From positions 4,394-68,393 of the forward strand of contig CAZAYU010000001.1 in the NCBI GenBank assembly GCA_964489445.1: DNA of 64,000 bases, written 5' to 3'. Below the pieces are notes generated by a model. The model saw only the letters and a program-made list of their open reading frames with translations, made no database searches and had not been told where the DNA came from. Source of the DNA: an uncultured Planctomycetia bacterium (lineage in GTDB: Bacteria > Omnitrophota > Gorgyraeia > Duberdicusellales > 4484-171). The position numbers and the translations under genes were made by a program. Positions 3,799 through 45,992 of the stretch are shown in pieces (the first letter of the stretch is position 1; every line of letters begins with the position of its first letter).

Positions 3799-4137
3799 AT
3801 GAAGCAGTTGTTGATTATTTTTCTGTTAGCAGTCAGCCTAAACATTACCGCATTTACTGCAGATAATGCAAATTCCGTTGATGAGGCAATTAAAGCATCT
3901 AGTAGTATGGATTCGGCTAAAGATAAGATTACTTATCTAATCAGCCAGGCAAACTCATTATATAATTCAAAGCAGTTCGAACAAGTAGTCCAAATCGCTC
4001 AATACATTTTACAGCATATTGACAAGAATTCTGCGCCAGCAAAAAGCCTTCTTGCAAAAGCTAAAGATGCATTAATGCAAGGTGCGCAAAGTGCACTGCC
4101 GAATGTAACCAAAGGCCGTACAAGTTTTGGTAAGTAA
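3799..4137 (+). CDS. hypothetical secreted protein
   Basis: RBS AAGGAGG 6 nt upstream of the ATG at 3799. Cleavable signal-peptide-like N-terminus (MKQLLIIFLLAVSLNITAFTA). Confidence 0.5.
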   Translation: MKQLLIIFLLAVSLNITAFTADNANSVDEAIKASSSMDSAKDKITYLISQANSLYNSKQFEQVVQIAQYILQHIDKNSAPAKSLLAKAKDALMQGAQSALPNVTKGRTSFGK

Positions 4138-4154
4138 AAAAGGGGAGCATACGA

Positions 4155-4223
4155 CATAAAGATTTCTCATCCCGTGTTGCGGGATTCGAAATCCATTTTT
4201 CCTGATAATTTGCACAATAGAAA
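4155..4223. repeat. 69-bp direct repeat, copy 1 of 2, upstream of tRNA-Ser
   Basis: CATAAAGATTTCTCATCCCGTGTTGCGGGATTCGAAATCCATTTTTCCTGATAATTTGCACAATAGAAA is repeated identically at 4308-4376. Confidence 0.8.
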
Positions 4224-4307
4224 TGTTCTCGAACTCAATGAAGTTGAGTGAGAGATCTGGTGTACACATTTAGAATAATGACCCCGAGCAAAGCGAGGGG
4301 TGTAAGG

Positions 4308-4376
4308 CATAAAGATTTCTCATCCCGTGTTGCGGGATTCGAAATCCATTTTTCCTGATAATTTGCACAATAGAAA
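4308..4376. repeat. 69-bp direct repeat, copy 2 of 2, ending 4 nt before the tRNA-Ser 5' end
   Basis: Identical to 4155-4223. It contains small hairpins (CCCG-TGTTG-CGGG and GGATTCGAAATCC). Confidence 0.8.
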
Positions 4377-4379
4377 AAT

Positions 4380-4468
4380 GGAGGGGTGGCCGAGTCCGGT
4401 TTAAGGCGGCGGTCTTGAAAACCGTTGTGGGGTTAAACTCACCGGGGGTTCAAATCCTCTCCCCTCCG
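4380..4468 (+). tRNA. tRNA-Ser (anticodon TGA), type II with a long variable arm
   Basis: Acceptor stem GGAGGGG/CCCCTCC with discriminator G. D-arm GCC..GGC. Anticodon stem GCGGT/ACCGT around the loop CTTGAAA, giving anticodon TGA. Long variable arm. T-loop GTTCAAATC. Confidence 0.8.
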
Positions 4469-4487
4469 TTTTTATTTAAACATTTAA

Positions 4488-4520
4488 CCCCTTGTAGCTA
4501 TTATAGTTGCAAGGGGTTTT
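4488..4520 (+). terminator. rho-independent terminator downstream of tRNA-Ser
   Basis: Stem CCCCTTG...CAAGGGG followed by TTTT. Confidence 0.55.
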
Positions 4521-4572
4521 GTAATCATACAACAATAGTCAAAAATCACGACAAACTAATAGAGGGAGTATT

Positions 4573-5130
4573 ATGGAAAAAAAAGATATTCTAGTCCGAG
4601 AGAGCGAAATCAACGATTTTAATGAAATTATGGAAGTTGAAGAACGGGCATTTGGCAATGTGAAAGAAGCTAAATTAACGGCGGATCTACTGAAAGATAA
4701 AACTGCTGAGCCGATCCTTTCACTACTTGCGTTTGATAATGACAAAGCTGTTGGATATATTTTATTTACAAGAGTGTATATTAATGAGATGACAAAAACG
4801 CAGCCATTAGCATATATCCTTGCACCTTTAGCTATTTTGCCTGAATATCAAAAACAAGGAATAGGAGGGTTGTTAATTAACGAAGGACTAAAAAGGCTAA
4901 AAGAAAAAGGTTCTGAAATGGTTTTTGTTTTAGGACATATGAAATATTATCCAAAGTTTGGCTTTATTCCAGATGCAAAGAAAATAGGCTTTTCTGCACC
5001 ATATCCAATTCCTGAAAAACATGCAAATGCATGGATGGTTCAATCACTGAATGCAGATGGATTTATATTGGGCAAAGGGAGAGTGGTATGTGCTGATGGA
5101 TTGAATAAATCGGAACATTGGAGAGAATAA
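4573..5130 (+). CDS. GNAT family N-acetyltransferase
   Basis: RBS AGAGGGAG. Acetyl-CoA-binding region QKQGIGGLLINEGLKRLKEKG matches the Q/RxxGxG/A motif, and the overall layout is GNAT-like. Confidence 0.8.
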   Translation: MEKKDILVRESEINDFNEIMEVEERAFGNVKEAKLTADLLKDKTAEPILSLLAFDNDKAVGYILFTRVYINEMTKTQPLAYILAPLAILPEYQKQGIGGLLINEGLKRLKEKGSEMVFVLGHMKYYPKFGFIPDAKKIGFSAPYPIPEKHANAWMVQSLNADGFILGKGRVVCADGLNKSEHWRE

Positions 5131-5482
5131 GCAAAACATCCCATTAAATGATTATAACATTATTCTAGATGTATTTTATACATTAAGAGTTGCGAAACCT
5201 GTCCAATAATGTGCCCATTTCGTGCCCCAGAATACAAATGAAAAATTAGTTTGAGTCCTACGCGAGGAGTTTTTTTGAAAATCCGAACTTTTTATTGGAT
5301 TAGAAATAAGCCCCAGTTACAAAAATGTAGTTGAGGTTTTTTGTTTATTCAGGAATATGAGATTATATATATGCGATGGAATATTCTTTGATATAATATG
5401 GAGAAGTATTTTTGGGTTAGAATGCTAGCCCTATTATTAAAAGGGCGGTTCATGATCAGCCTCTACAAACGATGGAGAGAGT

Positions 5483-6382
5483 ATGAAACAACACAGAATC
5501 TTTAGGTTATTACTTTTAATAATTCTTTTGATGGGTGGGCTCGGACTTTCGCCTGTCCTTGCGCAGGCCGGTCCTCATCAGAACGTTGAGACGATCAAAA
5601 TAGCGGCCTCTGTTGATGGTATAGAGATCAATTATTATGAGTATGGGCAAAAGGGGCCAATACTCGTGTTCGTTCACGGATGGAGTTGCGACGCGAGCTA
5701 CTGGAGAGAGCAGGTCGAGTATTTCAAGGAGAAGTATCACGTGGTTCTGATCGATCTGGCTGGGCATGGTCGTTCTGGGAGTAAGCGTGAGAATTATACC
5801 ATGGAAGCTTTTGGCCAAGATGTGAAGGCTGTTGTCGAAAGTATCGGGACAGAGAAGGTGGTTTTGATCGGTCATTCCATGGGTGTCCTTGTGATCGCAG
5901 AGGCGGCCCGCTTGATGTCAGAGAAGACTATTGGATTGGTCGCGGTTGATGATCTTCAGAATGTGGAATATCCCCTGGGGGAAGAACAGTTCAAGGAGAT
6001 GACCACACCATTCAAAGAAGATTTCAAGCAAGGTGTAAGAGGTTTTGTTGTAGACATGCTGCGTTCTGATAACTCGCCGGTCAATGAATGGGTGGTCTCT
6101 GACATGTCTTTAGCTGACCCCAAGGTTGCGGTCAGTGCAATGAACGGATCATTAGGTGGGTATCTGACAGGTGATGTGGCCAAGTTGTTCGATGAGTTGG
6201 ATGTTCCGGTTGTGGCTGTGAACACCGACCTTTGGCCAACAGATGTCGAAGCGAACAGACGGCACATAAAGGACTTTGAACTGATCGAGTTGGACGGACT
6301 GGATCATTTTCTGATGCTTAAAGCGCCTGAGCGTTTTAACCCCGCGCTTGAACAAGCTGTTAAAATGATACTCAAGAAATAA
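5483..6382 (+). CDS. alpha/beta hydrolase fold protein with an N-terminal signal peptide
   Basis: Signal peptide LLLIILLMGGLGLSPVLAQA. HGW oxyanion region and GHSMG nucleophile elbow, with a C-terminal D..H pair. GC content is clearly higher than in the flanking DNA. Confidence 0.8.
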   Translation: MKQHRIFRLLLLIILLMGGLGLSPVLAQAGPHQNVETIKIAASVDGIEINYYEYGQKGPILVFVHGWSCDASYWREQVEYFKEKYHVVLIDLAGHGRSGSKRENYTMEAFGQDVKAVVESIGTEKVVLIGHSMGVLVIAEAARLMSEKTIGLVAVDDLQNVEYPLGEEQFKEMTTPFKEDFKQGVRGFVVDMLRSDNSPVNEWVVSDMSLADPKVAVSAMNGSLGGYLTGDVAKLFDELDVPVVAVNTDLWPTDVEANRRHIKDFELIELDGLDHFLMLKAPERFNPALEQAVKMILKK

Positions 6383-6422
6383 AAAAGAAAGCGCTTATGA
6401 GGTGGATATGAATAAGACAATG

Positions 6423-6445
6423 AAGGGGCCAGACCCCTTTTCTTG
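6423..6445 (+). terminator. rho-independent terminator after the alpha/beta hydrolase gene
   Basis: AAGGGG-CCAGA-CCCCTT hairpin followed by a T-rich run. Confidence 0.45.
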
Positions 6446-6547
6446 CATTAAACAATTTCACCTGACATTAATCGCTTTTCCCTTGATAATAACGTCAATA
6501 CGCTATAATCATTGATAGTAAAGGAGGATTGAGGAATGACCTAAAGG

Positions 6548-6567
6548 AATCCTCTCCCCTCCGTTTT
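6548..6567. repeat. 20-bp direct repeat of the tRNA-Ser 3' end (att-like)
   Basis: AATCCTCTCCCCTCCGTTTT is identical to 4453-4472, the last 16 nt of tRNA-Ser plus 4 nt of flank. Confidence 0.75.
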
Positions 6568-6640
6568 AATTTTTTCTTCGAAAAAAAGAAAACGGACCTC
6601 GAACGAAGTGAGAGGTCTTGTGAATCAACTTCTTCGAAAA

Positions 6641-7208
6641 AAGACAACGAATTCTGGCGAGACACCGCCCGAATCAGAGTCCGTAAAGATATTTTATCGA
6701 TATCCAGAGGCGAGAAGGTAAATAGCTTTTCACAATTTGCATCAATCCACCTCTTTAAAACGGCTAATTGTTCCATTGTTTTCTCGGTAATAACTATTTT
6801 CTAGGACCGTCAAAATTCCCGGTGTGAATTTTTCCTGGCACTTCAGTTTTAAAAATCTCTTCCCTTAACAGGTTCGAGATACCGTGCTTTTAAAGTCTCA
6901 GAGAGCCTCCTTTTAAAATTGTTATTGCCTCCAAGACGTGGGGGAAAGAATAGAGGGGTTAGTAGGACAGTAATTTGCGCATTAAATATACTCTTGTGTG
7001 TTCCTTAGATTTGATGTATATTTTTGTTAGGGTGCAATTAAGTAAGACGTTTGTGGTTTTCTGCTACTGTTTTTAAAATTAAAATAGATGAGTTGGTGGG
7101 GAGAAACAAGTAGGTTTCTGGTGGTAACTTTTTATGATAGGAGTTGCTTTTTATTTTTAAAAGGGGATTAGCAAAGGAAAAGTAAGGTGTACCTAAATAG
7201 GACATCTG
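6641..7208. repeat. Island repeat family, copy A. It lacks the left inverted-repeat end and finishes with the right-end motif GGTGTACCTAAATAGGACATCTG at 7186-7208.
   Basis: Shares blocks of about 330 bp (GAGTCCGTAAAGATATTTTATCGATATCCAGAGGCGAGA ... TTGATGTATATTTTTGTTAGGGTG) with copies at 8854-9110, 10968-11383 and 12572-12988. A degenerate internal right-end motif lies at 7031-7053. Confidence 0.8.
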
Positions 7209-7247
7209 TAGTATCACTAATAGGACAAGCGAAATAATTTAACTCAA

Positions 7248-8741
7248 TTGAAAAAACAAAAAGTTATATCCTTCCTTGTTGGTTTATTTTTTGTTATTTT
7301 ATGTCTTGAAACAGGACTAAGAATAGTCGGATGGATTTACCAAGATAAAACCAGAAATATTGATTTTCCAGCCACTAAGAAAGATGGTCAATACACCATA
7401 TTATGTTTGGGTGATTCCTTTACTTATGGATTAGGAGCCCCTGAAGGTAAAGACTACCCTAGACGACTGGAAGATCTACTTAAGACCAGGCTAAAAAAAG
7501 AAAAAATTAAAGTTATTAACTACGGTCGGGCAGGAAAAAACACAGCATACATTCTAGATAAGACGCAATATATTATAAATAAGCAAAAACCGGATTTAAT
7601 TATTTTTCTAGCAGGATCAGCCAATATTTGGGATTTATCCGGATATAAAACATATCTGGAAAAAATAAATTTTGCTTCATGGACACTTGAACAATTATAT
7701 AATCTTCGTATTTTTAAATTGATAAAACTTTCAATCTTAAACATAAAGAAGAATAAAGTAAATAAACTGCTTTTAAAAACTGACAAACACATCTCTGCTA
7801 ACTCGGAATTAAAAAATAGCGATATAAAATTTTTAAAGGGCCAAATAAAAAAATATCCAAATATAGGGGTTAACTACGCTAAACTGGGAAGGATCTACTT
7901 CAAACAAAACGATCCTGAAAAGGCTCTAACGTATTTCAAAAAAGGAATTGCTGCCGCCCCCAATACTATTGATAGCTACTACAACATGGGGCAAATCTAT
8001 CTTAGAATGCATAAAAGAGAAAAAGCATTGGAGTGGTTTAGAAAAACAGCTGTTTTGTTTCCAAATAATGCGAAAAATTGCACAATCATCGGACGGATTC
8101 TCAAGAATCAACAAAAATACCAAGAGGCAAGAGAATGGTTCAAAAAAGCACTAAAAATAAATCCAAAATCAGGGGAGGCTTATTGCGGTATGGCTTGGAC
8201 TTACGGACAAAATAGTGAGTTTGAAACAGCAATAGAATGGTTCAAAAAGGGAACTATTGCTGATCCAAACAGCATTGACAATTACTACGGTTTAGGACAA
8301 ATTTATCGTGCCCAGCATAAATATGATGAAGGACTAGCATTTTTCCAATCAGTCAATACAAAATGCTCGGAAGTAAAACAATTTATCAGAATTTTTGAAA
8401 AAAAAGAAAAATATACCCGTGAAATAACAAATTGGATAGAATCAGACACCCGAGGTATTATTGAGATATGCGTCAAAAACAATATTCCTATAATTTTACA
8501 AAATTATCCAGAAAAATACGAGGGGTTCGATTGGAGTAGTATTTTCAATAATATTGCCAAACAATACTCCCTTCCTATAGTAGACCAATATCAATCTTTT
8601 AATGAGTTATGGAAACAAGGAGAAAAAAGAGATGATTACTTTGTTCAAGACGGACATTGTAATGCTAAAGGATATGCTGCAATGGCAAAAAACGTATACG
8701 ATAAAATAATAGAATTAAAATTAATTGATAAACTTAATTAA
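7248..8741 (+). CDS. SGNH/GDSL hydrolase-family protein with an inserted TPR-repeat region
   Basis: N-terminal signal/TM segment then GDSFTYG (GDSL block I). TPR-like repeats occupy about aa 200-340. A C-terminal DGHCN (DxxH catalytic block) is present. The start is TTG at 7248 and the true start is uncertain. Confidence 0.65.
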   Translation: MKKQKVISFLVGLFFVILCLETGLRIVGWIYQDKTRNIDFPATKKDGQYTILCLGDSFTYGLGAPEGKDYPRRLEDLLKTRLKKEKIKVINYGRAGKNTAYILDKTQYIINKQKPDLIIFLAGSANIWDLSGYKTYLEKINFASWTLEQLYNLRIFKLIKLSILNIKKNKVNKLLLKTDKHISANSELKNSDIKFLKGQIKKYPNIGVNYAKLGRIYFKQNDPEKALTYFKKGIAAAPNTIDSYYNMGQIYLRMHKREKALEWFRKTAVLFPNNAKNCTIIGRILKNQQKYQEAREWFKKALKINPKSGEAYCGMAWTYGQNSEFETAIEWFKKGTIADPNSIDNYYGLGQIYRAQHKYDEGLAFFQSVNTKCSEVKQFIRIFEKKEKYTREITNWIESDTRGIIEICVKNNIPIILQNYPEKYEGFDWSSIFNNIAKQYSLPIVDQYQSFNELWKQGEKRDDYFVQDGHCNAKGYAAMAKNVYDKIIELKLIDKLN

Positions 8742-8853
8742 CAAAACTCACTATCCAAATACTCAAAATCTGATATACAATCATTTAACTACTTATCGTA
8801 TTCCATAAAAACATTATAATATCATTTGAAAAAGCCTTAAAACTGCTAAAATT

Positions 8854-9110
8854 AGATTTGCCAGACGTCCTATTTAGTACACCCTGCCATTAAAGACAAC
8901 GGACTCTGACGAGGCACCGCCACGAGTTAGAGTCCGTAAAGATATTTTATCGATATCCAGAGGCGAGAGGGTAAATAGCTTTTCACAATTTGCATTAATT
9001 CACCTCTTTAAAACGGCTAATTGTTCCATTGTTTTCTCGGTAATAACTATTTTCTAGGACCGTCAAAATTCCCGGCGTGAATTTTTCCTGGCACTTTGGC
9101 TTTAAATCTT
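8854..9110. repeat. Island repeat family, copy B. The left inverted-repeat motif is at 8862-8883 and the right half is truncated.
   Basis: Begins AGATTTGCCAGACGTCCTATTTA-GTACACC about 115 nt after the stop at 8741. Homology to copies A and D runs to about 9110, then diverges into a promoter-like sequence. Confidence 0.8.
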
Positions 9111-9112
9111 TC

Positions 9113-9141
9113 TTGACAGTTTTTTTGATCCGCGTTAGTAT
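9113..9141 (+). promoter_or_regulatory. sigma70-like promoter (TTGACA, 17-nt spacer, TAGTAT)
   Basis: TTGACA at 9113-9118, a 17-nt spacer, then TAGTAT at 9136-9141, about 110 nt upstream of the ATG at 9251. Confidence 0.5.
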
Positions 9142-10967: not shown

Positions 10968-11383
10968 TGACCAGGCGTCCTATTTGGGTACACCCTGCTA
11001 CCATGACAAAACCTAAGTAATATCCACGCTAAAAATAGCTTGAAGTTATCGTTTAGAAACATACACTGTGGATAAGAGGGAAAATGCAAGAAACAAGACT
11101 TGACCACGTTTTTCCATTCAGCAATAACTAATTTCTAAGGATCGGTAAAATTCCCGGCGTGAATTTTTCCTGGCACTTCAGTTTTAAAAATCTCTCGCCC
11201 TAACAGGCTCAAGATACCATGCTTTTAAAGCTTCAGAGCCTCCTTTTAAAATTGTTATTGCCTCAAGGTGCAATTTCCTCTTTAAATATACTCTTGTGTG
11301 TTTCTTAGATTTGATGTATATTTTGATTATGTGTCTAGGATATATTATTGAGTTTAGTAAGGTGTACCTAAATAGAACGACTG
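10968..11383. repeat. Island repeat family, copy C. Both ends are present (left motif 10971-10992, right motif 11361-11383) and the left internal half is a variant.
   Basis: CCAGGCGTCCTATTTGGGTACACCC lies 45 nt after the stop at 10924. The right two-thirds is shared with copies A and D. The right end is GGTGTACCTAAATAGAACGACTG. Confidence 0.8.
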
Positions 11384-11452
11384 TAGATAGTTAAATTTGC
11401 CTAATAGGGTGGAGAGCAAAGTGTTTGAACCCTATTAGGGACACTATTAACC

Positions 11453-12571: not shown

Positions 12572-12988
12572 AGATTTGCCAGACGTCCTATTTGGGTACA
12601 CCCTGCTACTAAAGACAATGAATTCTGACGAGGCTCTGTCCAATTCAGAGTCCGTAAAGATATTTTATCGATATCCAGAGGCGAGAGGGTAAATAGCTTT
12701 TCGCAATTTGCATCATCACCCCACTAAAACGGTTAATTATTCCATTGTTTTTTCGGCAATAACTAATTTCTAAGGATCGGTAAAATTCCCAGCGCGAATT
12801 TTTCCTGGCACTTCAGTTTTAAAAATCTCTCACCTTAACAGGCTTAAGATACCATGCTTTTAAAGCTTCAGAGCCTCCTTTTAAAATTGTTATTGCCTCA
12901 AGGTGCAATTTCCTCTTTAAATATAATCTTGTGTGTTTCTTATATTTGATGTATATTTTTGTTAGGGTGTACTCAAATAAGACGTTTG
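12572..12988. repeat. Island repeat family, copy D, full length. Left motif at 12580-12602 and a degenerate right motif at 12966-12988.
   Basis: AGATTTGCCAGACGTCCTATTTGGGTACACCCTGCTACTAAAGACAATGAATTCTGACGAGGC... lies 16 nt after the stop at 12556. Collinear with copy A over about 400 bp. Confidence 0.85.
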
Positions 12989-13026
12989 TGGTTTTTGTCT
13001 AATATTAATCAAAATGGAGGTATCTT

Positions 13027-13374
13027 ATGAATGATGTAAAAGATATGATAGAAAAAATTAAAAAATTTAGAGATGATAGGGACTGGATGCAATTCCATGA
13101 CCCCAAGAATATGGCTGTTTCAATAATTTTAGAAGCTTCCGAGCTACTAGAACATTTCCAATGGAAGACTATTAAAGAAGTAGATGAATGCGCAAAACAA
13201 AATCAAGATGAGATTCAAGATGAAATTGCTGACATCGCTTTATATCTTTTTGAGATGGCAGATAATTTAGGAATAGACTTAATTAAAGCCATGGAAAAAA
13301 AGTTAGCAAAAAATGAAAAAAAATATCCAGTAAGCAAGGCTCGGGGGAAACATACTAAATACAATAGACTATGA
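13027..13374 (+). CDS. MazG-like nucleotide pyrophosphohydrolase
   Basis: RBS GGAGG. All-alpha MazG/HisE-type signature: DWMQFHDPKNMAVSIILEASELLEHFQWK ... EIADIALYLFEMAD. Confidence 0.75.
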   Translation: MNDVKDMIEKIKKFRDDRDWMQFHDPKNMAVSIILEASELLEHFQWKTIKEVDECAKQNQDEIQDEIADIALYLFEMADNLGIDLIKAMEKKLAKNEKKYPVSKARGKHTKYNRL

Positions 13375-15755
13375 TAGTTTACAGTAGTACAGTCAAAAAG
13401 TTTATTAATGATATTTGTGAGAATAGAATTGATGAAGAAATTGATAGATCTTGCTTAAAAGCTCTTGGGCGTAGCTTTTTAAAGAGGGAAGGAAAAGCGT
13501 GGCGTAATTCTTTAGGATATATGGAAAGGGTTGTCCAAAAGGCCGACCTACCCGATGATTGCGGTGTTTTGATAGAGTACACTATTCCATCAACATTCAA
13601 GCGAATTGATTTTATTGTTTCTGGCAAAGACGAGCAAGGTAATAACAACTTTATTATCGTTGAGTTGAAGCAGTGGGAAACAGCTTCAAGTACCCATAAG
13701 GATTCAGTTGTCACTACTTTGTTGGGAGGTTGTCCTAATTGCGAAACTACACACCCATCGTATCAAGCTTATTCATACAAGATGTTTATGAAAGATTTTA
13801 ATGAAAATGTTTACAAAGGTAGTTTGTTGCCTTTTTCGTGTGCTTACCTTCATAATTACATTGAAGGGAATCCGGAGCCTTTGAGAGAAGAGGCATACGA
13901 AGAAATAGTTTCTGATACCCCGGTATTTTTTAAGCATGATAGCGAAAAGTTATCTAATTTTCTTAAAAAACACGTTGGCAAAGGTTTTGGCGAGACTATC
14001 TTGTATGAAATCGAAGCGGGTAGAATTCGTCCTAGTAGGAAGCTGATAGATCATGTTTGTGAAATGTTTAAAGGTAATAAATCGTTTATATTGATTGATG
14101 ATCAAAAAATTGCTTACGAGAAAGCAGTCGACTCAGCATTGCATGCTACAAAAAAATCAGTTTTAATAATAAAAGGTGGACCAGGAACGGGTAAGTCCGT
14201 TATTTCGATGAATGTTTTGGGCGGTATTTTAAGCGGTGAAAAGAATGTTGCTTTTGTCGCGCCTAATGCGTCATTTAGAAATGTTTTGCTTCAAAGTCTA
14301 GCGAAAGAGAATAAGTCCGCAAGGATTAAGCATTTGTTCAAAGGTTCGGCTTGTTTCCATGATGTGGAGCAGCATACCTATGATGTTTTGATTGTGGATG
14401 AAGCTCATCGATTAAAAAACAAATCAGCATATCAATATCAAGGCGATAATCAGGTTGAGGATTTAATTAAGTCGTCTTTTGTTACTATTTTCTTTATTGA
14501 TGATAACCAAAGGATTAGGCCTGAAGATATCGGAACGGTAGAGGAGCTAAAACGTGTAGCAAGTAAATACACTGCTAACGTTGAGGTGATTGAACTCACA
14601 GCTCAATTTAGATGTTCTGGCACGGAAGGCTATGTCAATTGGCTAGATGATGTTTTGCATATCCGGCAAACTGCTAATTATGATGGATGGAATCAGAAAG
14701 AGTTTGATTTTAAAATTTGTGCTACACCGCAAGAGTTACATTCGAGAATAAAACAGAAAAATCATGAAAGATTTAACGCTAGAATGTTAGCAGGGTATGC
14801 ATGGAGTTGGACCGCTAAGGATGAAGGTAACAATAACGCTCAGGCAAATGATGTGAATATAGATGAACACGGTTTTGCTTTGCCCTGGAATTCTAGATCA
14901 ATGCGTACAAGCTGGGCGATTGAAAAAGACGGAGTTAATCAGGTTGGTTGCATTCATACCTCGCAGGGCTTAGAGTTTGACTATGTTGGGGTTATTGTCG
15001 GCAAAGATTTAGTTTTTAACTCAGATAATTGCGAATATTCGGCAGATTGGCAAAACTACAAAGATATGGCGGGTAAGAAGGGGCTGAGAGAAGATCTTGC
15101 ACAATTGAGCGTACTTATAAGAAACATTTATAAAACATTAATGACACGTGGAATGAGGGGGTGTTATGTCTATTTTTGTGATAAAAATGTAGAGCACTAT
15201 TTTAAACAAAGGTTAGATACTGTTACACAAAGCAAAAAATTAGTGCTTTCCGATATTGTTCCTGAAAAAGATCAGTTAACAACCGAACAAGATATCGCAG
15301 ATAGGTTGAAGTATACAGAATATTTACCAGTTTATTCTCTTGAAGCAGCTGCGGGTAAGTTTGGCGAAGGCATGGATACATATGAAAATGGCTGGATAAA
15401 AACTAACATTAATAAAAAATTAAATAAATGCATGTTTGTAATTAAAGTAGTTGGCCATTCAATGGAGCCATTAATACCAGATAATAGCTATTGTATTTTC
15501 AGAACAGGTGTTGAAGGAACGAGAAATAATAAAATAGTTTTAGTTCAACATCAAGGTATTGCCGATAGCGATACTAGTGGAAAATATACAGTCAAAAAGT
15601 ATAGCAGTAAGAAAACATCTAAGGATGATGGCGATGCTTGGGAACATGAGGAGATAATACTTTCACCTTTAAATGGTGATTATGAGCCAATGGTTATAAA
15701 AAATTCTGAGGAAGGGGACTTCAAAGTTATTGCTGAATTCATTACAGTGCTTTGA
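13371..15755 (+). CDS. fusion protein: PD-(D/E)xK-like nuclease motif, DUF2075/Schlafen-like P-loop ATPase, LexA-type S24 peptidase domain
   Basis: ATGA start/stop overlap with the MazG-like ORF. N-terminus has RIDFIVSG...IIVELKQW, a D...E-x-K nuclease motif. Walker A is GGPGTGKSV and Walker B/DEAH-like is LIVDEAHRL. C-terminus has LEAAAG-KFGEG (candidate Ala-Gly autocleavage site), VGHSMEP (G-x-S-M nucleophile motif of LexA/UmuD) and KYTVKKY (catalytic Lys region). Confidence 0.75.
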   Translation: MIVYSSTVKKFINDICENRIDEEIDRSCLKALGRSFLKREGKAWRNSLGYMERVVQKADLPDDCGVLIEYTIPSTFKRIDFIVSGKDEQGNNNFIIVELKQWETASSTHKDSVVTTLLGGCPNCETTHPSYQAYSYKMFMKDFNENVYKGSLLPFSCAYLHNYIEGNPEPLREEAYEEIVSDTPVFFKHDSEKLSNFLKKHVGKGFGETILYEIEAGRIRPSRKLIDHVCEMFKGNKSFILIDDQKIAYEKAVDSALHATKKSVLIIKGGPGTGKSVISMNVLGGILSGEKNVAFVAPNASFRNVLLQSLAKENKSARIKHLFKGSACFHDVEQHTYDVLIVDEAHRLKNKSAYQYQGDNQVEDLIKSSFVTIFFIDDNQRIRPEDIGTVEELKRVASKYTANVEVIELTAQFRCSGTEGYVNWLDDVLHIRQTANYDGWNQKEFDFKICATPQELHSRIKQKNHERFNARMLAGYAWSWTAKDEGNNNAQANDVNIDEHGFALPWNSRSMRTSWAIEKDGVNQVGCIHTSQGLEFDYVGVIVGKDLVFNSDNCEYSADWQNYKDMAGKKGLREDLAQLSVLIRNIYKTLMTRGMRGCYVYFCDKNVEHYFKQRLDTVTQSKKLVLSDIVPEKDQLTTEQDIADRLKYTEYLPVYSLEAAAGKFGEGMDTYENGWIKTNINKKLNKCMFVIKVVGHSMEPLIPDNSYCIFRTGVEGTRNNKIVLVQHQGIADSDTSGKYTVKKYSSKKTSKDDGDAWEHEEIILSPLNGDYEPMVIKNSEEGDFKVIAEFITVL

Positions 15756-15793: not shown

Positions 15794-15825
15794 AATTACC
15801 AGACGTCCTATTTAGGTGCACCCTA
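15794..15825. repeat. solo copy of the island-repeat left-end motif
   Basis: AATTACCAGACGTCCTATTTAGGTGCACCCTA lies 38 nt after the stop at 15755, in the same orientation as the other copies. Confidence 0.75.
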
Positions 15826-20820: not shown

Positions 20821-20852
20821 AATTACCAGACGTCCTATTTAGGTACACCCCA
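20821..20852. repeat. solo copy of the island-repeat left-end motif
   Basis: AATTACCAGACGTCCTATTTAGGTACACCCCA lies 12 nt after the stop at 20808, in the same orientation as the other copies. Confidence 0.75.
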
Positions 20853-25982: not shown

Positions 25983-26224
25983 AATCAATAATTAGCTTGC
26001 GCCAAAAAGAAGAAAACAGGTAGAATCGTTTTTCTTTTGTAAAACATAACGATAGAGGAAATAAGCCTGATAAATAAAGCTTATTCAAAAACCACTTCTT
26101 TTATCAGCTCTCCGATTCCGCTGTGTATCCTCTCTCCATAAAACCATTGAATTTTTTATTTAAGAGTATATATTGGAATAAGAAAGGTAAACCCTGATCT
26201 TGCAGGTCTACTAACAAATAATAA

Positions 26225-30765: not shown

Positions 30766-30947
30766 TTCATTGAAAACCGGGAGAAAACGAATAAATTTGT
30801 TTACAATTGTAAAATAACGCTAATTATGTTATAATTATGGATAAATAAGAAAGAATTCGTCTACATTAAAGGAATCCCTCCAATGCCGTTTAATGACAAA
30901 TCCTTTCCTAAGAGTTTATTTATATCACATTAAATAAAAGGAGTATC

Positions 30948-31415
30948 GTGGAAAAACATCGTAAACGTAAAAGTTTATCACTATCACCAAAAAATGAATC
31001 CGGCATAGCTGGCCCAATCCATAGAATGCAACAACAATTAAATGCTATGGAAAAAAAGTTGGATATTTTAATCGGTCAGTCTTCGGCAAGGCCTAACGAA
31101 AAAAACTACACTCAAGCTAATAGCTATCACCGAGATAGAGAAAGACACGACAGCTATCACGAGGATAAAACTTTTACTCGTGTTACTTGTTCAGACTGCA
31201 GTAAAGAGTGCGAAGTCCCTTTTAAACCAAGCGGCGACCGCCCAATATACTGCCGAGAATGCTTTTCAAAACACAAAAAAGATAATCCTTTTGATGCAAC
31301 CCGAAACGATAAGCCAAAAAAAAGAAATTTCTCTTGGGAAAACCACTCTGACAAAAAAACAAAACCATTTAAAAAAAATGAATCATTTTTTACACGCAAA
31401 AAAAAACGTATTTAG
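30948..31415 (+). CDS. basic protein with a CxxC...CxxC zinc ribbon
   Basis: RBS AAAGGAG. CSDCSKECEVPFKPSGDRPIYCRECF flanked by Lys/Arg-rich tails. Confidence 0.55.
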   Translation: MEKHRKRKSLSLSPKNESGIAGPIHRMQQQLNAMEKKLDILIGQSSARPNEKNYTQANSYHRDRERHDSYHEDKTFTRVTCSDCSKECEVPFKPSGDRPIYCRECFSKHKKDNPFDATRNDKPKKRNFSWENHSDKKTKPFKKNESFFTRKKKRI

Positions 31416-31791: not shown

Positions 31792-33135
31792 ATGAATAAA
31801 CCACAACCCAAATCATCTCATCCATACACTGCACCCCAGGGAGCATTCACTCAGCTAATTCTTGAATTGCAGCAGGCAGTATCCGACCGTGGCTACCATA
31901 CGCCTACACCAATCCAGGAAAAAGTAATCAAACCTTTACTCAACGGACGAGATTTGATCGGCTGTGCACAAACGGGCACCGGAAAAACTGCCGCGTTCAT
32001 ACTGCCAATATTGCAATATTTAACAAAAAATTCACGCCCTCGGGTACGAAATAAAAATCGCGTATTAGTCTTAGCGCCTACCCGTGAATTAGCCGCCCAA
32101 ATCGGCGATAGCATTAAGAATTATGGGCGATATCTAAAAATATCTCATACAGTTATTTTTGGCGGCGTCGGCCAAAACCCTCAAGTACGCGCGCTGGTAC
32201 GTGGTGTAGATATTGTTACAGCCACCCCCGGACGCCTGCTAGATTTAATTAACCAACGCCACATAAATCTCGACAATACAGAAATCCTTGTATTAGATGA
32301 AGCAGACCGGATGCTTGACATGGGTTTTATCTACGATGTTCAAAAAATAATCTCTAAGCTTCCTAAAAAGAGGCAGACTCTTTTTTTCTCAGCCACTATG
32401 GATCCAGAAGTAATTAAGCTCTCGGAAGAAATTGTAAACGATGCTGTTTTTGTCAAGATAACTCCCGACAAACCTGCAGTAGAGCGTATTATCCAAAAAG
32501 TATTTTTCGTAGATAAAAATCGCAAAGATGCTCTGTTGACTCAGCTTCTTAGAGCCAAGCATCTAAGCCGAGTATTAGTTTTTGTCCAAATGAAGCATTC
32601 CGCCGATAAAGTCGTTAGGCAGCTACACTCGTCTAGCATCAGCGCTGTAGCAATTCACGGCAACAAAAGCCAAACTGCACGCACCGCAGCATTAGCCAAG
32701 TTTAAGCTGGGCCAAATTCGTGTTTTAGTAGCTACTGATATTGCCGCTCGCGGAATAGACGTTGATTCGATTTCACATGTGATAAATTATGATCTCCCAA
32801 ACACCCCGAATACTTATGTACACCGTATCGGGCGAACCGCCCGAGCCGGCGCTGAAGGCGATGCTGTTTCATTTTGCTCGGCGCCAGACCGAGATTGCTT
32901 GCGTGCAATAGAAAAAATGCTGCACATGAAAATTTCTGTTGACCGTGATAGTTCTTTTCACTCTCAAACAGCTGAGTTTGCTACCGGAGCCGCAGCGCGC
33001 CCCTTGCCTAGAGGTAGAGGGTCTAGCCGCTCCTTAAGCAGCGCTGCCAAGAGAGAAAAACGCCCAAATCCTGCACGATGGCAAAAAACCAAAAGTAGCA
33101 GCAGAAACACCACATATCGTCGTCGATATAAATAA
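31792..33135 (+). CDS. DEAD-box ATP-dependent RNA helicase
   Basis: TPTPIQ (Q-motif region), AQTGTGKTAAF (motif I), VLDEAD (motif II), SAT, HRIGRTARAG (motif VI) and an Arg/Ser-rich C-terminus. Confidence 0.9.
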   Translation: MNKPQPKSSHPYTAPQGAFTQLILELQQAVSDRGYHTPTPIQEKVIKPLLNGRDLIGCAQTGTGKTAAFILPILQYLTKNSRPRVRNKNRVLVLAPTRELAAQIGDSIKNYGRYLKISHTVIFGGVGQNPQVRALVRGVDIVTATPGRLLDLINQRHINLDNTEILVLDEADRMLDMGFIYDVQKIISKLPKKRQTLFFSATMDPEVIKLSEEIVNDAVFVKITPDKPAVERIIQKVFFVDKNRKDALLTQLLRAKHLSRVLVFVQMKHSADKVVRQLHSSSISAVAIHGNKSQTARTAALAKFKLGQIRVLVATDIAARGIDVDSISHVINYDLPNTPNTYVHRIGRTARAGAEGDAVSFCSAPDRDCLRAIEKMLHMKISVDRDSSFHSQTAEFATGAAARPLPRGRGSSRSLSSAAKREKRPNPARWQKTKSSSRNTTYRRRYK

Positions 33136-45763: not shown

Positions 45764-45797
45764 AAAATGCTCCAAATAAATACTATCAAAAATATTT

Positions 45798-45871
45798 GCG
45801 CCCGTAGATCAATTGGACAGATCGTTTGGCTACGGACCAGAAGGTTGCGGGTTCGACTCCTGCCGGGCGCA
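45798..45871 (+). tRNA. tRNA-Arg (anticodon ACG)
   Basis: Acceptor GCGCCCG/CGGGCGC plus discriminator A. D-stem GATC/GATC. Anticodon stem TTTGG/CCAGA around the loop CTACGGA. T-arm GCGGG-TTCGACT-CCTGC. 74 nt. Position 37 is G, which is unusual for this isoacceptor. Confidence 0.7.
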
Positions 45872-45992
45872 TACTGATCTTTAACATATTACGTATCTTT
45901 GTTATGCAAACCTGTGGTTTATCATAAGGATTGTCGGAACAAATAAATCAATTACCGTGAGCAATTAGACTTCGGCTGTGCCGAAGATTTGT

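Follow-up and report, generated by a model that had tools for sequence, protein, structure and literature searches.

When the 3' end of a tRNA gene recurs, detached from the rest of the gene, a short distance downstream of the intact copy, is the DNA in between a unit that was inserted there, or does the second copy have another history? This question is raised by a stretch of 64 000 nucleotides (hereafter ‘the window’, meaning the whole of this stretch) from contig CAZAYU010000001.1 (GenBank assembly GCA_964489445.1) of an uncultured bacterium placed by GTDB in the Omnitrophota. In it, an exact 20-bp direct repeat that takes in the 3' end of a tRNA-Ser(TGA) gene delimits 2.1 kb of DNA encoding a GNAT acetyltransferase and an alpha/beta hydrolase. 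The reading that we favour, tentatively and with somewhat less than even confidence, is that the two copies of the repeat are the junctions of a small recombinase-less cassette, which would result from serial site-specific insertion at the tRNA-Ser 3' end by a recombinase acting in trans or since lost. The features on which the argument turns are as follows:

4380–4468, forward strand: tRNA-Ser(TGA) gene with no encoded CCA (Rfam RF00005, 53.9 bits; ARAGORN)
4453–4472, forward strand: repeat copy 1, the attL-like core, exact 20-mer AATCCTCTCCCCTCCGTTTT
4486–4517, forward strand: strong hairpin and T-run directly 3' of the tRNA gene (fold −22.2 kcal/mol, z −6.1 against shuffles)
4573–5130, forward strand: GNAT acetyltransferase (Pfam PF00583, 2.4e-10, and PF13527)
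5360–6410, forward strand: hydrolase transfer block, defined by nucleotide homology to other genomes (coding sequence 5483–6382)
6470–6547, forward strand: ‘A’ element abutting repeat copy 2 (TTGATA, 18 nt, TATAAT, then CATTGATAGTAAAGGAGG, on to CCTAAAGG)
6548–6567, forward strand: repeat copy 2, the attR-like core, an orphan tRNA-Ser 3' end with the same exact 20-mer
26006–26094, forward strand: A-like element with no recognisable tRNA core (nhmmer: A profile, E 1.5e-5; A-core profile, E 2e-3)
30775–30890, forward strand: second A element, its core degenerate, TAAAGGAATCC-CTCCAATGCCGTT (A-core profile, nhmmer E 1.2e-6)

The repeat itself proved to be exactly what the earlier note on this DNA, made from the sequence alone, had described. 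The 20-mer is present exactly twice in the window, no additional copy appears there at up to three mismatches, and not one match was found in 100 dinucleotide shuffles (chance expectation 0), which rules out a chance event. The independent ENA, JGI and Logan assemblies show the same arrangement at 99.97–100% identity and agree with one another, so that an assembly artefact is likewise ruled out; a strain polymorphism suggested by contig ends at 5314–5822 in several assemblies was dropped, these ends being scattered. The 20-mer ends in TTTT, preceded by the final 16 nt of the tRNA, namely AAT of the T-loop, 3' T-stem, 3' acceptor strand and discriminator G. It does not extend leftward, and rightward an immediate mismatch is followed by four more matches (24/25). 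The base just to its left is A in the tRNA gene of the window (TTCAAATCC) and G in the orphan copy (AGGAATCC), and this G is common to all other copies of the A-core junction described below and to the tRNAs of relatives. The span from T-loop to 3' end is a recognised sublocation of integrase attachment in tRNA genes (bioRxiv 10.1101/2020.11.02.365908). The span given by ARAGORN for the tRNA gene, 4379–4469, is one base off that of Rfam at each end, and the hairpin that follows the gene is probably its terminator. The gene for seryl-tRNA synthetase (SerRS; 1104–2372, Pfam domains) lies 2 kb upstream; SerRS and the proteins encoded near it assign the window to Candidatus Omnitrophota. Directly upstream of the tRNA gene there is also a tandem duplication with a 153-bp period (4137–4223 and 4290–4376; 87 nt, 91% identical), which includes a small hairpin and the sequence abutting the tRNA 5' end, the first copy being followed by non-tRNA sequence.

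The orphan 3' end is fused to a conserved arm that also occurs in other genomes. When JGI metagenomes were scanned for the 20-mer, 27 loci came up, mostly intact tRNA-Ser genes or unrelated coding contexts, and in four of them (L097, L098, L104 and L117), as well as in L105, which belongs to the same strain as the window, the 20-mer is directly preceded by A. This element is about 80 nt long, making a conserved element of about 100 nt together with the core. Overall it reads TTGAAA, 17 nt, TATAAT, then CATTGATAAATAAGGAGTATTGAATATACACCTAAAGG, longer versions adding a GTGCCCAAACTGTGCC motif and three CAGAGGATAA repeats; its −35 and −10 hexamers make up a sigma-70-like promoter directed toward the next gene, and it holds a pair of GTGCC repeats in addition to the three copies of CAGAGGATAA. 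Profiles of A and of A with its core were built only from copies outside the window and searched with nhmmer. The A profile matches 6470–6546 at E 1.2e-9 and the A-core profile matches 6471–6575 at E 2.6e-21. Together with the two matches listed above, this gives three A-type junctions in the window, all oriented like the tRNA and all situated between the tRNA and a conserved helicase gene, and the same profile search detected none in the other 37 kb. The second A element ends 58 nt upstream of the gene at 30948–31415, and no significant B-like flank (B being the other junction element, described next) follows its degenerate core at 30.9 kb. A conserved short open reading frame (ORF) in A-core was ruled out by inspection, the start codon and the frame varying among copies.

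In related genomes, a second conserved element, B, follows the intact tRNA gene. Its start is terminator-like, and it also contains AGTGCCCATTTTGTGCC, a promoter with an extended −10, a conserved leader and ATGGAGAAGAA. In L117, the order is tRNA-Ser, B, a 159-aa TPR protein, a 56-aa Cys-rich protein and A with the 20-mer, within 1.0 kb in all. In L140, which was found independently through the flanking 195-aa protein and not via the 20-mer, the order is tRNA-Ser, B, a 1156-aa CARDB protein, a 228-aa protein and an A element cut by the contig end. L112 and L098 contain arrays of two such units. Since the cargo of L117, of L140 and of the window differs, a single junction architecture is found around unrelated cargo in at least three genomes. 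The possible trace of B in the window is limited to one motif:

5211–5226, forward strand: GTGCCCATTTCGTGCC, a motif typical of B (single occurrence in 64 kb, 0.04 expected)

This motif is possibly, and only tentatively, a vestige of B. The B profile gave a single match at E 0.18 in the window, and a shuffle test showed no significant similarity between the window flanks and the start of B. The idea that the GNAT gene splits a B arm in the window was accordingly downgraded, the 16-nt motif being the sole B-like signal.

Three further observations concern these junctions in other genomes. On the reverse strand of L117, a 17-nt copy of the tRNA 5' end (GGAGGGGTGGCAGAGCT) lies about 126 nt upstream of the intact tRNA-Ser gene, so that this locus has both 5' and 3' orphan fragments; no such 5' fragment occurs in the window. 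In L104 (about 250–420) and L112 (reverse strand, about 1250–1470), an opposite-strand helix-turn-helix (HTH) gene abuts B through GGTTCGAATTGGTTGCAGCTGCGTCCG, which takes the place of the tRNA or core at this junction. This ‘pseudo-core’ was considered as a second tRNA-like end and rejected: it has no tRNA match and is the 5' end of a small HTH gene of the sigma-70 region-4 type, which is no recombinase. Finally, in L013, a metagenome-assembled genome that is Omnitrophota-like according to GTDB, the tRNA-Ser 3' end with at least 37 nt of flank (5338–5390) is repeated 137 nt downstream (5475–5527), beside a scaffold gap; what is seen there is a small scar of the att type or else an artefact of assembly.

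Is the 2.1-kb interval an isolated insertion, or part of something larger? Two landmarks further to the right allow the locus to be compared with its relatives:

31792–33135, forward strand: DEAD-box helicase, the conserved right-hand anchor (80% amino acid identity to the helicase of L111/L112)
45797–45872, forward strand: tRNA-Arg(ACG), a syntenic anchor (synteny)

The order SerRS, 195-aa membrane protein, tRNA-Ser(TGA) is kept in relatives, and the content downstream is not. The helicase gene starts 1.7 kb after the tRNA-Ser gene in L111/L112 versus 27 kb in the window, and an A remnant lies just upstream of it in L112. The distance from tRNA-Ser to tRNA-Arg(ACG) is 41.4 kb in the window versus 4.7–7.1 kb in L135/L137, L134 and L020, and comparison of these intervals with that of the window revealed no common genes. 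In L139, tRNA-Ser(TGA) (5701–5792) is inverted relative to SerRS and is followed by genes for an XRE regulator, SIR2-HerA, RadC, a Dcm methylase, Vsr and a phospholipase D (PLD) nuclease, which look like a defence island. Therefore, this clade has a hypervariable hotspot downstream of tRNA-Ser. The suggestion of the earlier note that the islet might be part of a larger composite island thereby gains support, both from the helicase spacing in L112 and from the second A with its degenerate core at 30775–30890. This second A is a candidate for the distal boundary of the composite island, and because of it the 2.1-kb islet looks like the tRNA-proximal unit of a flexible island of about 26 kb, roughly 4469–30890.

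Other repeats are scattered over the same region. A family of intergenic repeats of about 410 bp resembling miniature inverted-repeat transposable elements (MITEs) is represented at 6640–7211, 8857–9114, 10968–11386 and 12576–12991, with solo ends at 15800–15824 and 20827–20851. Its members have terminal inverted repeats of about 25 bp (CAGACGTCCTATTTRGGTACACCCT) and an internal identity of 80–95%, and lie between groups of same-strand genes; no transposase for them was found in the window. The first copy starts 72 nt past the orphan tRNA 3' end and has no clear left inverted repeat. MITE-like inverted-repeat ends also flank what looks like a defence-type gene pair at 13027–15755, in which a MazG-like gene overlaps the start of a gene for a 794-aa protein with a Schlafen-group-3 helicase domain and a C-terminal S24 peptidase.

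By what route could such an arrangement arise? In the cassette reading that we favour, a circular element would carry a site made up of the A arm and a core that matches the final 16 nt of the tRNA exactly. This site would recombine with the tRNA 3' end; the tRNA would be regenerated at the left junction, and the right junction would consist of the A arm of the element fused to the tRNA 3' end that had been displaced. With each further event at this tRNA, older insertions would be pushed distally, and a flexible island would thus be built, here extending from 4469 to about 30.9 kb and ending at the second A with its decayed core. The recombinase would either act in trans, from elsewhere in the genome or from a helper element, or have been lost, in which case the units would now be fixed remnants. 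The G to the left of the orphan core would fit an element-derived left side at the right junction. Several observations count in favour of this reading, namely the start of the repeat in the T-loop, conserved junctions around variable cargo, the presence of several directly oriented A units, a decayed distal core, a hypervariable locus and the marks of horizontal transfer in both cargo genes. It is from these that we infer site-specific recombination as the cause, an integrase as the agent of insertion, its action in trans or its loss, and the order of accretion.

A number of results weigh against this reading, and the first of them concern the enzyme. Of the ORFs of 100 aa or more that were tested in the 64 kb, none has an integrase, recombinase or transposase Pfam domain; the earlier remark that no recombinase lies between the repeats was thus borne out by the Pfam search. 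No integrase occurs on the contigs carrying A or B, and L004, in which 5 kb of additional upstream sequence are visible, has none there either. Small ORFs that precede the tRNA were considered as hidden recombinases and rejected, as neither Pfam nor PHROGs gave any support; no small ORF had a PHROGs match. Searches by tblastn with phage integrase, XerD and Hin probes were negative, the XerD and Hin probe sequences being approximate. There was no integrase-bearing relative among the 27 metagenome and two viral matches to the core, and IMG/VR contains neither A nor B motifs. The viral contigs L119/L120 of IMG/VR illustrate the canonical integrase-plus-attP layout: a tyrosine integrase gene stops about 30 nt short of a 3' half of tRNA-Ser(GCT) of about 55 nt with the same terminal 20-mer (in L120, integrase at 7123–8262 and 3' half at about 8290–8362).

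Nor was the substrate or the product of the presumed reaction encountered. All contigs of the strain of the window, which occurs in metagenomes of the Antarctic-lake type, have the site occupied. An empty site was not found in a close relative, the nearest ones, L132 (78% identical) and L133, ending before the tRNA; in the distant relatives L134 and L135, the repeat is missing and no gene of the interval is shared. A circular or attP-type junction of the strain was not found in metagenome and viral scans, a weak negative given that the collection missed known contigs of the strain, and the 20-mer scan of this incomplete collection yielded neither an empty-site nor a circular junction. The remaining objections bear on the junction itself. 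To the left of the core, the tRNA and A have no similarity, and hence no symmetric binding sites of the core type are obvious. Four of the five intact A-core copies, that is, all those other than the window's own and the same-strain L105, were selected through the exact 20-mer, and conservation of the core cannot be judged from copies obtained in this way. Moreover, promoter-bearing A elements without a core stand directly upstream of ordinary genes (in L098a, in L112 and at 26006 in the window), so that A could be a regulatory module rather than the arm of an element. What the earlier note called a classic attL/attR signature is therefore upheld in part: the repeat is real and starts in the T-loop, but ‘classic attR’ is not the sole reading of a 20-mer embedded in a conserved element of about 100 nt that is also found without the tRNA core.

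Could the orphan 3' end simply be what is left of a second tRNA-Ser gene? According to this explanation, which we consider unlikely but credible, a downstream tandem copy after SerRS lost its first approximately 73 nt, A being its promoter or leader, while ordinary horizontal transfer, along with homologous recombination between conserved flanks, exchanged the genes between the two copies. Tandem genes of this kind do exist in distant Omnitrophota (L016, L017, L019, L020 and L029), where SerRS is followed by tRNA-Ser(TGA), then by (CGA) and sometimes by (GGA), with a spacing of 20 nt to 5.4 kb; the last 25 nt of the TGA gene of L029 are exactly those of its CGA gene. A tRNA with a UGA anticodon can render other UCN isoacceptors dispensable. 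The promoter in A is at about the right distance from the tRNA fragment, and the recurrence of the same architecture in several genomes is expected of an inherited structure. On the other hand, nothing tRNA-like extends beyond the 16 nt: the tRNA covariance model (RF00005) is blank around 6548, with no match in 6380–6680 at E values as high as 10. Where CGA or GGA genes are present, no A-like sequence precedes them. A single relic does not explain two or three A units in the window or the arrays of L098 and L112, the endpoint of a random deletion would have a chance of only about 8% of falling in the 7-nt T-loop, and the perfect 20/20 identity of the orphan copy differs from the decayed core at 30.8 kb.

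A decidedly less likely explanation is that A-core is a dispersed promoter or leader module with a tRNA-Ser-derived segment, copied to intergenic sites, in which case the repeat would delimit nothing mobile. Indeed, A lies directly before same-strand genes in L098a (292-aa protein), L112 (helicase), the window (30775–30890, before the gene at 30948) and L097 (354-aa membrane protein), and its hexamers and short direct repeats, the GTGCC pair and the triplicated CAGAGGATAA, could be binding sites of a regulator. Yet every copy in the window lies between the tRNA and the helicase, in one and the same orientation, and this explanation leaves unexplained why tRNA-Ser is the left neighbour in three genomes. 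The copies that were not chosen via the 20-mer either have no core or a decayed one, from which it follows that the core is not a conserved functional part of such a module. In addition, the A-core transcript folds no better than shuffled sequences (z −1.2, +0.5 and −0.3), and a structured small RNA or terminator found no Rfam match either.

The two genes enclosed by the repeat bear on a further question, whether the 2.1 kb arrived as one piece. Pfam confirmed the identity that the earlier note had assigned to both: besides the GNAT acetyltransferase, the coding sequence at 5483–6382 is an alpha/beta hydrolase (PF12697, 7.7e-20) whose nearest solved structures are esterases and arylesterases and whose N-terminus, MKQHRIFRLLLLIILLMGGLGLSPVLAQA, resembles a signal peptide to judge from its residues. 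When windowed GC and codon usage were computed, the hydrolase stood out most. Sliding-window GC reaches 0.46–0.49 over 5401–6400 versus about 0.30–0.42 elsewhere in the first 20 kb, and the hydrolase gene is the strongest compositional outlier of the 55 genes of the window, with a GC of 0.474 (z 3.4), a GC at third codon positions (GC3) of 0.517 (z 4.7) and a codon usage z of 3.2. The composition of the GNAT gene is host-like (GC 0.351, GC3 0.242). Because the GNAT gene is no outlier, GC richness is limited to the hydrolase gene, and the description of the whole interval as a GC-rich islet holds for this gene and not for the 2.1 kb.

Homology searches separate the two genes further. The hydrolase has about 70 homologues, at 68–92% amino acid identity, mostly labelled Omnitrophota. 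It is 87–89% identical at the nucleotide level in three Omnitrophota genomes, in unrelated neighbourhoods where the GC of the locus is 36%, 47% and 54%; the homologous block begins 18–125 nt before the ATG, stops within about 30 nt past the stop codon and never includes the GNAT gene, A or the core. Identity at third codon positions is 79–81%, and GC3 is about 0.50–0.55 in all hosts, a combination that indicates a fairly recent spread. As a nearly gene-sized unit, seen in the window and in L121, L122–L125 and L126 (around 8001–8900), the hydrolase has about 47–50% GC everywhere. The GNAT gene is 82% identical in amino acids and 83% in nucleotides to a gene of Ca. Kaelpia aquatica, which has a different neighbourhood, between a radical-SAM gene and a second GNAT gene, and its product is 70–75% identical to Bacteroidota proteins; nucleotide homology is restricted to 4570–5130, about the coding sequence, and the distribution is patchy across phyla, as is usual for horizontally transferred genes. 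Both genes have thus undergone horizontal transfer, in what the sequences indicate to be separate histories, and neither the islet nor the hydrolase had a match in INPHARED phages, PLSDB plasmids or IMG/VR that would designate a phage or plasmid vector.

As these histories are separate, the 2.1 kb is not a single block from a single donor. The search for a donor lineage proposed in the earlier note therefore established a foreign gene but not one GC-rich source for the interval, and a decayed or satellite-type islet is apt in so far as it is recombinase-less and the same junction surrounds other cargo in L117 and L140, but not as one unit from one donor. Within the cassette reading, the hydrolase would be a separate, fairly recent single-gene acquisition inside the cassette, and the GNAT gene a different one. 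The remaining alternative, a single decayed island that entered whole from a GC-rich donor in one integrase-mediated event and later lost its integrase, is highly improbable: direct repeats do flank both genes and the hydrolase is strongly atypical, but the GNAT gene is host-like and has other nearest relatives and neighbourhoods than the hydrolase, and hydrolase homology ends at the gene borders (5360–6410).

What would follow from each of these explanations differs greatly. If the orphan 3' end were only a tRNA relic, the finding would be ordinary. If the cassette reading is true, tRNA-Ser(TGA) would be a gene-capture hotspot in an uncultured phylum with few reports of mobile elements, where esterase, acetyltransferase, TPR and defence-type genes would accumulate in recombinase-less units with conserved junctions; the model of tRNA-seeded islands developed for Prochlorococcus and the concept, established in Firmicutes, of cis-mobilizable elements (CIMEs) would both extend to the Omnitrophota. 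The A element and the 20-mer core would then provide sequence handles for finding the recombinase and for tracking gene flow in Antarctic lake populations. The hydrolase, 87–89% identical in nucleotides across genomes from 36% to 54% GC, clearly marks recent exchange of genes within the phylum.

Which known system does the locus resemble? Among the closest are the CIMEs (2017, PMC5704250); products of this kind are described by published models both of CIMEs and of the growth of tRNA-seeded islands. As in CIMEs, a small segment lies between direct repeats of the 3' end of the target gene, has no integrase or transfer genes and seems to have accreted in tandem at the site; that is, attL- and attR-like repeats are kept without integration and transfer genes, the repeats being presumed att sites. 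Unlike in CIMEs, no autonomous integrative and conjugative or integrative and mobilizable element with the same att specificity was found, either among the 27 metagenome and two viral matches to the core or in IMG/VR and the phage and plasmid collections. There is no evidence of a relaxase or an origin of transfer, the host is an uncultured member of the Omnitrophota, and it is every cassette seen here, not one decayed copy, that is recombinase-less.

Tycheposons build tRNA-seeded flexible islands in Prochlorococcus, with tRNA-Ser(TGA) among their seven targets (Hackl et al., bioRxiv 10.1101/2020.12.28.424599). Our locus is similar in having a full tRNA at the proximal end (4380–4468) and partial copies inside (6548–6567 and, degenerate, within 30775–30890), metabolic and defence cargo, and a content that varies between relatives. 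It differs in that the hallmark genes (tyrosine or large serine recombinase, replication module) occur neither in the window nor in related contigs, that the repeat is 16–20 nt long versus about 40 nt, and that tycheposons, as described, include no conserved A arm with an outward promoter. Canonical integration into tRNA 3' ends (classes of Williams 2002, via bioRxiv 10.1101/2020.11.02.365908) likewise yields a direct repeat from the T-loop to the 3' end and an intact tRNA at one junction. Of what characterizes tRNA-gene islands and prophages, the direct repeat and foreign DNA are present here, the latter shown for the hydrolase by GC3 and nucleotide identity and for the GNAT gene by its patchy distribution; in contrast, an integrase normally adjoins the att site, as in L119/L120, and none does so here. 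With regard to a decayed paralogue, no residual tRNA sequence was detected beyond the 16 nt, and tandem tRNA-Ser genes occur in relatives, although only in distant ones.

A last comparison is with integron arrays, which also consist of same-orientation cassettes of unrelated genes with a conserved junction element and a recombinase encoded outside the cassettes. There is a slim chance that this clade holds an integron-like cassette system at tRNA-Ser(TGA), in which B would be the left arm and A the right arm, ending in the last 16 nt of the tRNA, and a recombinase encoded elsewhere would insert, stack and exchange cassettes. The Omnitrophota have been described as nanobacteria with host-dependent traits, and such a system, if real, would give these uncultured organisms a dedicated gene-capture locus. 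Against a true integron, no intI gene lies by the start of the array and no integrase upstream of the tRNA, the junction has no significant potential for attC-like hairpins (A-core folds as shuffles do), and the cassettes of related genomes bring their own promoter-bearing arm, B. In any case, the locus belongs to a known type, the tRNA-anchored flexible island with a partial-tRNA repeat and recombinase-less content. What is less ordinary is that a recombinase is absent from every unit seen and that the junction arms are conserved across several Omnitrophota genomes.

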